Of a stretch of 11,659 nt of DNA, positions 8,616 through 11,659 are shown piece after piece. The notes under the pieces are model-generated. The model was not told the origin of the DNA. It searched no databases and saw nothing but the letters and a program-made list of their open reading frames with translations. The stretch comes from a virus. Its lineage: Duplodnaviria; Heunggongvirae; Uroviricota; Caudoviricetes. Each line of letters begins with the position of its first letter. The stretch's first letter is position 1. The position numbers were made by a program, and so were the translations under genes. The stretch lies in the IMG/VR virus record IMGVR_UViG_2690316231_000013, one strand, 5' to 3'.

Positions 8616-8752
8616 TGTTTGAGTTTAATATGGCAGAACTTCTTCGCCACCGCTGGATGCGCCTGCGCTTATATCGTTTCCCCAGTTCTGTTTTGACCGA
8701 TTACCGAATACTGAGGAATTACGCCAAAACCCTGACAGGAGCAGGAGTATGA
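8612..8752 (+). CDS. ylcG: YlcG-like small protein, 46 aa (not in the ORF track)
   Basis: ATGATG at 8612 overlaps the rusA stop. Translation [46 protein letters not shown]. Confidence 0.65.
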
Positions 8753-8837
8753 AGTCAGAGATAACAATCAACTAATACTGTTTTATTGATTTTTGCTTGT
8801 AATTGGCGTTCTGGTCTGATTTTTGTGGAGTAAGTTG

Positions 8838-9221
8838 ATGCGTGATATTCAGATGGTTCTTGAGCGTTGGGGAGCGTGGGCGGCTAATAATCATGAAGAT
8901 GTGACCTGGTCGTCCATTGCCGCCGGTTTTAAGGGATTAATTACTTCAAAAGTAAAATCTCGCCCGCAATGTTGTGACGATGACGCGATGATCATTTGCG
9001 GGTGCATGGCCCGTCTGAAAAAGAACAACAGCGATTTGCACGATTTATTAGTAGATTATTATGTAGTCGGTATGACATTCATGTCACTGGCAGGTAAGCA
9101 TTGCTGCTCTGATGGTTATATCGGGAAAAGGTTACAGAAGGCTGAGGGTATAATTGAAGGGATGTTAATGGCATTAGATATCCGGTTAGAGATGGATATC
9201 GTTGTTAATAACTCTAATTAA
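8838..9221 (+). CDS. quuD: Late-gene antiterminator Q (DLP12 QuuD-type), 127 aa
   Basis: ATG at 8838 with GGAG 7 nt upstream; the track start at 8823 is [29 protein letters not shown]...[16 protein letters not shown]... matches the QuuD-type Q family as recalled. Confidence 0.85.
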
Positions 9222-9254
9222 TATGCCAATTGTTTACTAAAAATTATTAAAAAT

Positions 9255-9272
9255 GGGGCGTTGAGACGCCCC
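9255..9272 (-). terminator. GC-rich stem-loop with a T-run on the minus strand (candidate terminator)
   Basis: GGGGCGT-tgag-ACGCCCC perfect 7-bp stem. On the minus strand it is followed by ATTTTTAATAATTTTT; on the plus strand it is followed by A-rich sequence, so it is not a plus-strand intrinsic terminator. Confidence 0.45.
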
Positions 9273-9338
9273 CAAAAATAAAGGGTAATATATAACAGAA
9301 GGTTTATATAGTTAGAAGCAAGGTTGTGCTCCTAAAGG

Positions 9339-9394
9339 AAGTGGCTTGAGGGAGCCACTTATATGTTGGGGAGGCAAAGCCTCCCGCAACATAT
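9339..9394. terminator. Two adjacent stem-loops directly 3' of the porin gene (candidate porin terminators and/or barrier to plus-strand read-through from Q)
   Basis: AAGTGGCT-tgaggg-AGCCACTT (9339-9360) and ATATGTTGGGGAGGC-aaa-GCCTCCCGCAACATAT (9361-9394, one bulge), 16 nt from the porin stop at 9410-9412. On the plus strand followed by CTTTTAG. Confidence 0.5.
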
Positions 9395-9409
9395 CTTTTA
9401 GTAATCAAA

Positions 9410-10492
9410 TTAGAACTGGTAAACCATACCTACAGCAACGATATCATCGGTAGCAACGCCAGATGCTTTCGTGAAATCGCTCTTATCAATCAGGTTGATT
9501 TTGTAATCAACAAAAGTGGACATATTTTTGTTGAAGTAATAGGTTGCACCTACATCAATATATTCAACCAGGTCCTGATCACCCCACGCACCCAAGTCTT
9601 TTCCTTTAGATTGCAGGTAAGCAACGGACGGACGCAGACCGAAGTCGAACTGATATTGTGCAACTACTTCGAAGTTTTGTGCTTTGTTGGCAATATGGTT
9701 ATTACCAAAAACAGTCATGTTCTGGGTTTCAGAATAGGTGGTAGCCAGATAGATGTTGTTCGCATCATATTTCAGACCAGCTGCCCATACTTCAGCATTT
9801 TGACCAGATGCATTCAGGCTGTTGTTACCGTAGATAACCTGATTATTAGTGCGGTCAGATTTAGCATAGGTTGCACCTACACCGAATCCTTCATACTCAT
9901 AAGTAGTGGAGAAACCGAAACCATCACCATTAGCTTCAGTTACGTCAGTGCGGTCATTTTTACCCTGATACTGAGCAGCAAAGTTCAGACCATCAACCAG
10001 ACCAAAGAAGTCATTGTTACGATAAGTTGCAACACCTGTGGTGCGACCAGTCATGAATACATCTGTTTGGGTCCAGGTATCGCCACCGAATTCTGGCAGA
10101 ACGTCGGTCCATGCACCAATATCGTATGCTACACCGTAGTTACGGCCATAATCGATGGAGCCGTAGTCACCGAATTTCAGGCCAGCGAAGGCAAGACGGG
10201 TTTTATCTTTGGAGGAACCTTGAGATTCAGCGCGGTTGCCTTTGAATTCATATTCCCACTGACCGAAACCAGTCAGTTGATCGTTGATTTGGGTTTCACC
10301 TTTGAAGCCAAGACGGGCATAAGTAGTATCACCATCATCTGCATCATTAGAGGAGAAGTAGTGCTTAGCATTAACTTTCCCGTACAGATCCAGCTTGTTA
10401 CTGTCTTTATTATAAATTTCAGCTGCCTGAGCAGACATCGCCATCAGTACTGATGCAGCTACAGCAGAAATTGCCACTGTTAATTTTTTCAT
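9410..10492 (-). CDS. nmpC: General diffusion porin of the OmpC/NmpC/OmpD family, 360 aa, apparently intact
   Basis: ORF-track ORF 9410..10552 trimmed to the ATG at 10490-10492 ([23 protein letters not shown] signal peptide, then AEIYNKD...). C-terminal ...VGMVYQF with terminal Phe. Position between Q and holin on the opposite strand matches DLP12 nmpC. Confidence 0.85.
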
Positions 10493-10770
10493 CGTGAGCC
10501 CTTTTTTTGAACTATTATTAAAAAATGATGTCACTGCGCGATAAATATTCATCTAATCAATGTGATTATTTCAAGATGTAAGTTTTGGTTTCTCATTTGA
10601 TTTGTGAAGTAGATCTCTATTTTTATCTGAACTTTTTCTATCGAATCCTATTCATGGCTCTTGGCTGAATAAAAATAAATCTATTAGCCAATTTATATTA
10701 ATGGCTGTTATTTATAAGTGCTCTATAATTTGAAGATTCAATTTAAACCAGCTAAAAATAACGCTGGAAA

Positions 10771-10791
10771 TTATTTGTTGGTTATTTGTTG
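10771..10791. repeat. Tandem direct repeat TTATTTGTTG-g-TTATTTGTTG in the AT-rich region upstream of the porin gene
   Basis: Read directly: 10771-10780 and 10782-10791 are identical 10-mers. Confidence 0.5.
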
Positions 10792-10918
10792 AGATTTGCT
10801 TATGTATTTGTAGTGGTGTTTTCAATACTCGGTAGCATTCTCGCAAATATCATTTAGTGGTTTACGTACGTAAAAAATTGGTTATGCTGTTAAGAGTGGT
10901 TACTTCGTCACACAGCTT

Positions 10919-10951
10919 AAACCCGCCGTCGAGCGGGTTTTTCCATTTTTT
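10919..10951 (+). terminator. Intrinsic terminator on the plus strand about 130 nt upstream of the holin start (candidate tR'-like late terminator)
   Basis: AAACCCGC-cgtcga-GCGGGTTT stem followed by TTCCATTTTTT. Confidence 0.6.
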
Positions 10952-11079
10952 GAGTCTCGATATTAGCTGATAACCCAATACCTGAGTTATTCACTGACTC
11001 CGAGTCTGTTAAGTTTCTGCTTTTTTGCGATACGTTGTATTCCCTCAATTTACACCCGCTTTGTCTGCGAGGTGGGGTT

Positions 11080-11295
11080 ATGAAATCCATGGATAAGTTA
11101 ACAACGGGTGTCGCCTATGGCACCTCAGCAGGTAGTGCCGGTTACTGGTTTTTACAGCTGCTCGATAAAGTCACGCCCTCACAGTGGGCAGCAATAGGTG
11201 TGCTGGGTAGCCTGGTATTTGGCCTGCTGACGTACCTGACAAACCTTTATTTCAAGATTAAAGAAGATAAGCGCAAGGCTGCGAGAGGTGAATAA
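11080..11295 (+). CDS. essD: Class II holin / pinholin (phage 21 S-type), 71 aa, with dual start motif
   Basis: ATG at 11080; the track start at 11035 is an upstream alternative. [26 protein letters not shown]...[15 protein letters not shown] has Met1 and Met4 (MKSM) as in S21-type holin/antiholin pairs, two TM segments and a charged C-terminus. Confidence 0.85.
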
Positions 11296-11550
11296 TGCCT
11301 CCATCATTACGAAAAGCCGTTGCTGCTGCTATTGGTGGCGGAGCAATTGCTATAGCATCAGTGTTAATTACTGGCCCAAGTGGTAACGATGGTCTGGAAG
11401 GTGTCAGCTACGTACCATACAAAGATATCGTTGGCGTATGGACTGTATGTCACGGACACACCGGAAAAGACATCATGCTCGGTAAAACGTATACCAAAGC
11501 AGAATGCAAAGCACTCTTGAATAAAGACCTTGCCACTGTCGCCAGACAAA
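11295..11550 (+). pseudogene. rrrD: SAR endolysin (phage 21 R-type lysozyme, rrrD-like), truncated after about 85 codons by an IS5-family element
   Basis: ATG at 11295 overlaps the holin stop (TAATG). N-terminal signal-anchor-release domain [27 protein letters not shown], then lysozyme sequence up to ...KDLATVARQ. From 11551 the sequence is an IS end and the frame reads [15 protein letters not shown] then stop. Confidence 0.8.
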
Positions 11551-11659
11551 GGAAGGTGCGAATAAGCAGGTCATTTCTTCCCAAGCTGACTCGCTGATTA
11601 AAATTTCTCGGATCTGGGCCGATTTTTTTCCCGCAAACACATCGAATCAGCCTATTTAG
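11551..11659. mobile_element. Terminal about 109 bp of an IS5-family insertion sequence (IS5-like but diverged); the element continues beyond the window
   Basis: Starts GGAAGGTGCGAATAAGC (the IS5 terminal inverted repeat as I recall it) and ends ...GAATCAGCCTATTTAG. Internal positions differ from IS5 at many sites, roughly 75-80% identical by eye. Confidence 0.65.

Follow-up and report, generated by a model that had tools for sequence, protein, structure and literature searches.

In phage lambda, the pR'-qut-tR' module (6S RNA) combines a constitutive late promoter with a short terminated RNA made without Q, and Q-dependent read-through carries transcription into the lysis genes. For phage 21, the curated record lists, with the -35 hexamer, a Q-binding element (QBE) of two 8-bp direct repeats at -27 to -12, a -10 hexamer at -12 to -7, a pause element at +2 to +8 and a terminator at +3 to +50, then two tRNA genes and S21; Q21 reads the major groove and the adjacent minor groove. 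Q21 and Q933W form one family, PF06530 (Yin et al.). For the Sakai Stx phages, the late-promoter start has been mapped by dRNA-seq and a 3' end by Term-seq 258 nt downstream, with an RNase E cut between GU and AUU of a GUAUU motif at +173 (Sy et al., PMC7547250). As the RNA detected in that study is 258 nt long, the first hairpin of the Sakai transcript must be at least partly read through. Two terminators in tandem follow the late promoter of Stx phages (Sp5 record, here L006, 769-797 and 975-1003); the name tR' is given to the second (+258) in the literature and to the first in the 933W record. The efficiency of the first one has apparently not been reported, and the account of Stx pR' regions in PMC6266700 comes without start or terminator positions. 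In the DLP12, 434 and PA-2 records examined, the late promoter is unannotated.

The window analysed here is an 11,659-nt stretch of DNA from a Caudoviricetes record (IMG/VR IMGVR_UViG_2690316231_000013). Judged by its homologies, it is a DLP12-type lambdoid prophage with quuD, an opposite-strand porin gene, essD, and rrrD truncated by the end of an IS5-family element. In homology searches, positions 8700-11550 matched thousands of E. coli chromosomes at up to 100% identity, and the gene order annotated in these is ylcG, quuD, porin, essD, rrrD; the left part of the window encodes integrase, exonuclease, NinB and RusA. The genes and elements around the region of interest are as follows:

8838-9221, plus strand: quuD, late antiterminator Q of the Q21/Q933W family, 127 aa (PF06530, E = 3.5e-53; named quuD in RefSeq genomes)
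9410-10552, minus strand: porin gene (nmpC/lc/ompC-like), 380-codon ORF (Porin_1, E = 4e-153)
10952-11079, plus strand: leader from terminator to holin, without a second terminator or tRNA genes
11080-11295, plus strand: essD, S21-type pinholin with dual start (M1, M4) (PF04971, E = 2e-35; 434 and phage 21 annotations)
11295-11550, plus strand: rrrD, SAR endolysin, 5' part only (PF00959; homology to other genomes ends at about 11550)
11551-11659, no strand assigned: end of an IS5-family element with inverted repeat GGAAGGTGCGAATAAGC, truncating rrrD (17/17 match to the IS5 terminal repeat)

QuuD is 78% identical to Q933W and gives a distant match to the Q21 structures 6JNX and 6P18 (E = 8e-7). 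The same porin is annotated as porin or nmpC in 434, PA-2 and K-12, with the annotated K-12 start at window position 10492. A GC-rich hairpin (GGGGCGTTGAGACGCCCC, 9255-9272) lies 34 nt past quuD; it was considered as a tR' for Q and rejected, since its T-run is on the minus strand only, as befits a porin terminator. The terminator scan detected no second terminator between 10951 and 11080, and a search of the holin leader for tRNA genes, present in phage 21 and Stx phages, found none. A 16-nt stretch of this leader (CTGCTTTTTTGCGATA, 11016-11031) is missing from K-12 DLP12, which is otherwise almost identical across 10853-11079. At the right end, the IS5-family element cuts rrrD after about 85 codons, which leaves this prophage with a defective lysis cassette; in most other genomes the site is uninterrupted, and strain ML35 has an ISKpn26-family transposase at this place.

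We consider it likely that positions 10861-10951 are the cognate late module of QuuD (8838-9221), consisting of pR', the Q-loading region and the first terminator. Of the parts of such a cassette, a Q gene in the same element, a terminator ahead of the late genes and the lysis genes on the same strand are present, and there are candidates for the promoter and the QBE. The module is composed as follows, numbered relative to the predicted start:

10861-10866, plus strand: -35 hexamer TTTACG at -34 to -29 (direct reading; identical in 933W/Sp5)
10861-10877, no strand assigned: perfect 14-bp palindrome TTTACGTACGTAAA plus A-tract at -34 to -18, candidate Q-binding element (palindrome scan)
10883-10888, plus strand: -10 hexamer TATGCT at -12 to -7 (direct reading; the position keeps TAnnnT in nearly every module variant)
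10895, plus strand: predicted transcription start, A (homology with the mapped Sp5 late-promoter start)
10896-10911, plus strand: small conserved stem-loop GUGG-N8-UCAC at +2 to +17 (predicted fold; conserved in aligned relatives)
10919-10940, plus strand: terminator stem-loop at +25 to +46 (terminator scan and RNA fold; homologue of the putative tR' annotated in 933W)
10941-10951, plus strand: T-rich tail TTCCATTTTTT, extending to +57 (direct reading and terminator scan; CCA interrupts the U-tract)

The assignment is carried by homology to Stx-phage late promoters. A sensitive search of phage genomes with window positions 10800-11080 as query returned 356 matching records. Porin-carrying phages (434, PA-2 and many E. 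coli isolates) matched along the full query, and about 280 other records, mostly Stx phages, matched query positions 61-143 only (window 10860-10942). The 85-nt segment 10860-10945 has 77-85% identity to DNA that, in numerous phages including 933W and Sp5, either follows Q immediately or overlaps its end. In the 933W record (Y10775.2), the matching stretch covers the end of Q together with the putative pR' (6587-6612) and the putative tR' (6645-6670). In a four-way alignment, the similarity starts abruptly at GTTTACG, the -35 region, and ends after the T-run, with unrelated flanks on either side. The module is 100% identical in K-12 DLP12. Within the window it occurs once, and a search for a second copy or a remnant next to quuD found none.

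The mapped Sakai start can be transferred to the window. The coordinates in PMC7547250 refer to an older genome version, and we therefore placed the start on Sp5 via internal distances. The sole GUAUU of Sp5 lies at L006 917-921 (cut 918/919) and the T-run of the second terminator ends at 1003; both distances fit only a start at L006:746, which is 7 nt past the TATCAT of TTTACG-16-TATCAT. The base homologous to L006:746 is A10895, and nucleotides 1-47 of StxS_L align to 10895-10942. By alignment, then, the window promoter is homologous to one whose primary start has been mapped, and the window hairpin, as judged from the aligned sequences, is the homologue of the first, partly read-through terminator of the Stx phages.

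The promoter hexamers are unremarkable when viewed in isolation. The first-pass annotation had named TTTACG at 10861-10866, a 16-nt spacer and TATGCT at 10883-10888 as a possible sigma70 promoter and had called it weak; direct reading confirmed the coordinates. Each hexamer matches the consensus at 4/6 positions, giving 8/12 in total, below the 9/12 threshold of the promoter scan, which consequently did not list the site; the homologous 933W/Sp5 promoter was called by the same scan at 9/12. On the plus strand of the 528-nt porin-holin spacer, two 8/12 sites were observed versus 2.65 expected from dinucleotide shuffles. By themselves, the hexamers are not above chance; it is conservation and homology that lift the promoter above it. 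The accessible part of the supplementary data of Adams 2021 and Ettwiller 2016 contains no K-12 start or 3' end for the module. The search of the early transcript for a sigma-dependent pause element yielded no clear match, the best -10-like hexamer being TACTTC at +7 to +12, in the loop of the +2 to +17 stem-loop, which has A at position 2 and lacks the conserved T at position 6 (933W counterpart TACATT). A direct repeat of TGGTTA (10880 and 10898) was considered as a Q21-like tandem QBE and rejected, as it is not conserved in 933W or PhiR55_1.

The terminator, in contrast to the promoter, stands without outside evidence. Its stem pairs AAACCCGC (10919-10926) with GCGGGTTT (10933-10940) around a CGTCGA loop, with 8 pairs of which 5 are G-C. 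The contiguous T-run comprises just 5 T (10938-10942), 3 of them able to pair with AAA, and is followed by CCA and then T6. In the terminator scan the hairpin ranked third in the window overall and first on the plus strand; between the end of quuD and the holin it was the sole plus-strand site, save for a weak one inside quuD, and no other plus-strand terminator-like site was found from the hairpin to the holin. The predicted 57-nt RNA folds into the hairpin (centroid -12 kcal/mol, z = -2.0). Read on the minus strand, the hairpin has no T-run behind it, indicating that it acts in the plus direction only. The hairpin with its T-run at 10919-10951 had been noted before, at about 130 nt ahead of the holin; this holds, the distance from the end of the tail (10951) to the holin ATG (11080) being 129 nt. 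As the window has no counterpart of the second Stx-phage terminator, the hairpin is the sole barrier before the holin. Stem pairing is maintained despite sequence differences in Morganella (CCCCGT/ACGGGG) and Klebsiella (CCTCGCC/GGCGGGG) phages, whose modules were recovered by profile, independently of the search pattern. Covariation statistics on both hairpins in the IMG/VR set were dropped, because the search pattern had fixed most stem positions. About 20 of 58 DLP12-type IMG/VR loci have a G>T exchange in the 3' half of the terminator stem (GAGCTGGTTT) and hence a mid-stem C-U mismatch; in prophages with this exchange, the terminator may be leakier.

A published start further upstream must be weighed against this assignment. 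According to PMC7918800, the DLP12 region cloned there spans -121 to +650, counted from the start defined in Rueggeberg 2015; its forward primer lies at window positions 10420-10439, and the 771-bp length of the K-12 amplicon fits exactly. The amplicon thus places the published lysis-cassette +1 at approximately 10541, close to where the porin gene starts and 354 nt ahead of A10895, and this is the only published DLP12 lysis-cassette start that could be placed on the window. The lysis genes might accordingly run from this start, which is reported to be RpoE-linked, with the hairpin serving as an attenuator or roadblock in a 539-nt leader and with non-working hexamers, as their chance-level score would permit. 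We regard this as unlikely. Q-family antiterminators load promoter-proximally, and the sole homology to Q933W-type late promoters in the window is at 10861-10895; Q loading would be expected at the module. Furthermore, the upstream region 10553-10850 is porin-specific and missing from porin-less relatives. The PMC7918800 amplicon holds the whole module, so the reporter data cannot separate a start at about 10541 from one at about 10895, and the two starts may coexist. An RpoS SELEX peak near essD (PMC5493296; older K-12 coordinates) converts to the porin start region, off the module, and was set aside as uninformative.

The module might also be a terminator only, insulating the lysis genes from stray rightward transcription such as early-operon read-through or porin antisense RNA, with hexamers that arose by chance. 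The clear terminator next to a statistically unremarkable promoter would suit such a function, and the module would indeed also block read-through from upstream. Nevertheless, we consider a pure insulator very unlikely, as the homology reaches 58 nt upstream of the hairpin and begins exactly at the -35 hexamer, the -10 position retains TAnnnT in nearly every variant, and the homologous Sakai promoter has a mapped primary start.

It is highly improbable, in our view, that the main product is a trans-acting small RNA resembling StxS, with control of the lysis genes as a secondary role. Stx-phage late promoters do yield an Hfq-binding regulatory RNA in lysogens (PMC7547250), and the transcribed core from +1 to +52 is nearly invariant across Q alleles. 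However, the functional fragment, StxS_S, makes up the 3' part of the 258-nt RNA, the window matches only nucleotides 1-47 of StxS_L, a counterpart of the Hfq-binding StxS_S fragment was sought in the window and is absent, and the Rfam scan of the whole window gave no match at E <= 1. That the GTGG-N8-(T/C)CAC repeat at +2 to +17 is a CRP operator of the divergent porin gene is scarcely credible and was rejected as an older reading of the repeat: the PA-2 record (J02580.1) annotates a CRP site at L002 1730-1750, equivalent to module positions +1 to +21, and the right half TCACA matches the TGTGA-N6-TCACA consensus in the window version, but the left half TGGTT matches it at 2/5 positions, most variants have CCACA, the repeat is separated from the porin start codon by over 340 nt, and it is conserved in the porin-less phages 933W, SfII, PhiR55_1 and a Klebsiella phage.

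Returning to the late module of QuuD as the preferred reading, we propose the following mechanism. Sigma-70 RNA polymerase would start at about A10895 from TTTACG-16-TATGCT and, without Q, would stop at the hairpin and U-tract some 48-57 nt downstream, leaving holin and endolysin unexpressed. Once made, QuuD would bind promoter DNA, most likely at the palindrome and A-tract (-34 to -18), load onto the early elongation complex and carry it through the terminator into essD-rrrD. In the usual arrangement, the module abuts Q or overlaps its 3' end; here, the two have been separated by the insertion of a 1.6-kb opposite-strand porin cargo, and the trans action of Q on its DNA site makes this separation tolerable. 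The earlier proposal of a Q-dependent late promoter giving a short terminated RNA ahead of the lysis genes thus gains support from the 933W/Sp5 homology, the mapped Sp5 start, the 78% QuuD-Q933W identity and the single copy of the module.

Several sequence types of the element at about -34 to -21 were seen, all of them made up of a palindrome and then an A-tract: TTTACGTACGTAAA (window), TTTACGATCGTAAA (933W), GCGTACGC, GCGGTCCGC, TGTTATAACA and ATTCG-TTA-CGAAT (Klebsiella phage). Its core is ACGTACGT in the window versus ACGATCGT in 933W/Sp5. Two other perfect palindromes were seen in the window, AAAACCAATTGGTTTT (294-309, by the end of the integrase gene) and CATCAGTACTGATG (10442-10455, within the porin gene), where about 0.7 palindromes of at least 14 bp are expected by chance. 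In 98 loci Q was usable, and these Q proteins formed 9 clusters at 90% identity; each Q cluster pairs with a single palindrome type, without exception in 98/98 loci, which represent 43 distinct architectures and are not independent of each other. Linkage alone is an incomplete explanation of this pairing, for three reasons. First, segments by the -10 hexamer and past the terminator are common to different palindrome classes. Second, in Morganella and APSE phages the palindrome is still of the type that goes with their Q clade, even though their transcribed part is diverged or unrecognisable. Third, the Q clusters differ most in a helix-turn-helix-like region. In one locus, the GCGTACGC palindrome and its matching Q are joined to a DLP12-type transcribed part. 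The palindrome overlaps the position of the phage 21 QBE, and the A-tract would suit groove reading in the manner of Q21.

From these sequence comparisons, palindrome plus A-tract offers the best reading for the QBE of the QuuD/Q933W branch. The more specific proposal, which we hold to be evenly poised, is that an 8-14-bp palindrome near -27 constitutes this QBE, that it is allele-specific, and that it is possibly contacted by head-to-head protomers, unlike the tandem pair of Q21. If so, the module would be a two-part mosaic, whose half from the palindrome to the -10 hexamer travels with Q and whose nearly invariant half, from +1 to the terminator, travels with whichever late genes follow. This would also provide a sequence rule for which Q allele switches on which late operon, Stx operons included, and would make the Q/pR' junction a general insertion site for opposite-strand cargo expressed in lysogens.

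The junction was compared among relatives. For 120 viral contigs from IMG/VR (L008-L127) with the transcribed core, we identified the closest Q gene on the upstream side of the module. Contact or overlap of the module with Q was seen in only about 10 of about 100 loci, and elsewhere 0.6-3 kb lie between them; the separated state is thus commoner than the adjacent one. In 79 of the 89 loci with a gap above 500 nt, the longest ORF of the gap is on the opposite strand. The cargo varies: it is the porin in the DLP12 type, in L022 a KAP NTPase with a match to the PADLOC candidate system PDC-S20, and elsewhere it includes several AT-rich proteins that have no Pfam or PADLOC match. In the adjacent state, the Q frame runs through the palindrome (933W Q ends in SLRS, Morganella Q in TLRS, each directly before the stop codon). 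QuuD departs from Q933W directly past the common LEMD motif, a divergence that, at the sequence level, is consistent with cargo having entered at the extreme end of Q. All in all, the Q/pR' junction looks like a cargo slot. The late promoter had been described beforehand as relocated; that it lies apart from Q is borne out, and the term can be refined to the insertion of a 1.6-kb opposite-strand porin cargo between the two.

The module is very probably, by its homologies, an ordinary relative of the one that controls Shiga-toxin and lysis genes in Stx phages. Its assignment gives a position to the putative Q-responsive late promoter of phages 434 and PA-2 and of the DLP12-type prophages that thousands of E. 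coli genomes carry, K-12 among them, and this position differs from the published lysis-cassette start at about 10541. Since biofilm and vesicle phenotypes have been tied to the DLP12 lysis genes, the true control point matters for the reading of reporter constructs. The module itself is of modest interest; the Q-allele palindrome and the Q-pR' cargo slot might repay experiments, as both bear on which Q alleles drive which Stx-phage late operons.

Among known late cassettes, that of 933W/Sp5 is one of the closest to the window module. The two have homologous DNA, the same -35 hexamer TTTACG, a 16-nt spacer and a TAnnnT -10 hexamer, about 79% identity over +1 to +47 including the hairpin, and the 78% identical Q proteins. 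They differ in that the 933W/Sp5 module overlaps the 3' end of Q, whereas the window module lies 1.64 kb from Q behind the porin gene; in 933W/Sp5, the second terminator at +258, tRNA genes and stx follow, whereas in the window an S21-type holin follows directly, without StxS_S. The U-tract is interrupted in the window, unlike in 933W/Sp5. With phage 21, the window shares a PF06530 Q and an equally compact geometry, with the -10 hexamer at -12 to -7, a protein-binding element between -35 and -10 (a candidate in the window) and a terminator ending at about +50 that is followed by an S21 pinholin and a SAR endolysin. Nonetheless, there is no detectable DNA similarity between the two, and the match of QuuD to Q21 is a distant one; the QBE of phage 21 consists of two direct 8-bp repeats rather than a palindrome with an A-tract, the phage 21 pause element at +2 to +8 is a clear TAAGCT that has no evident equivalent in the window, and two tRNA genes precede S in phage 21 but not in the window. 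The lambda module employs an unrelated Q family (PF03589), yields a terminated RNA of 194 nt and directly follows Q, yet pR'-qut-tR' shares the logic proposed here for the window module.
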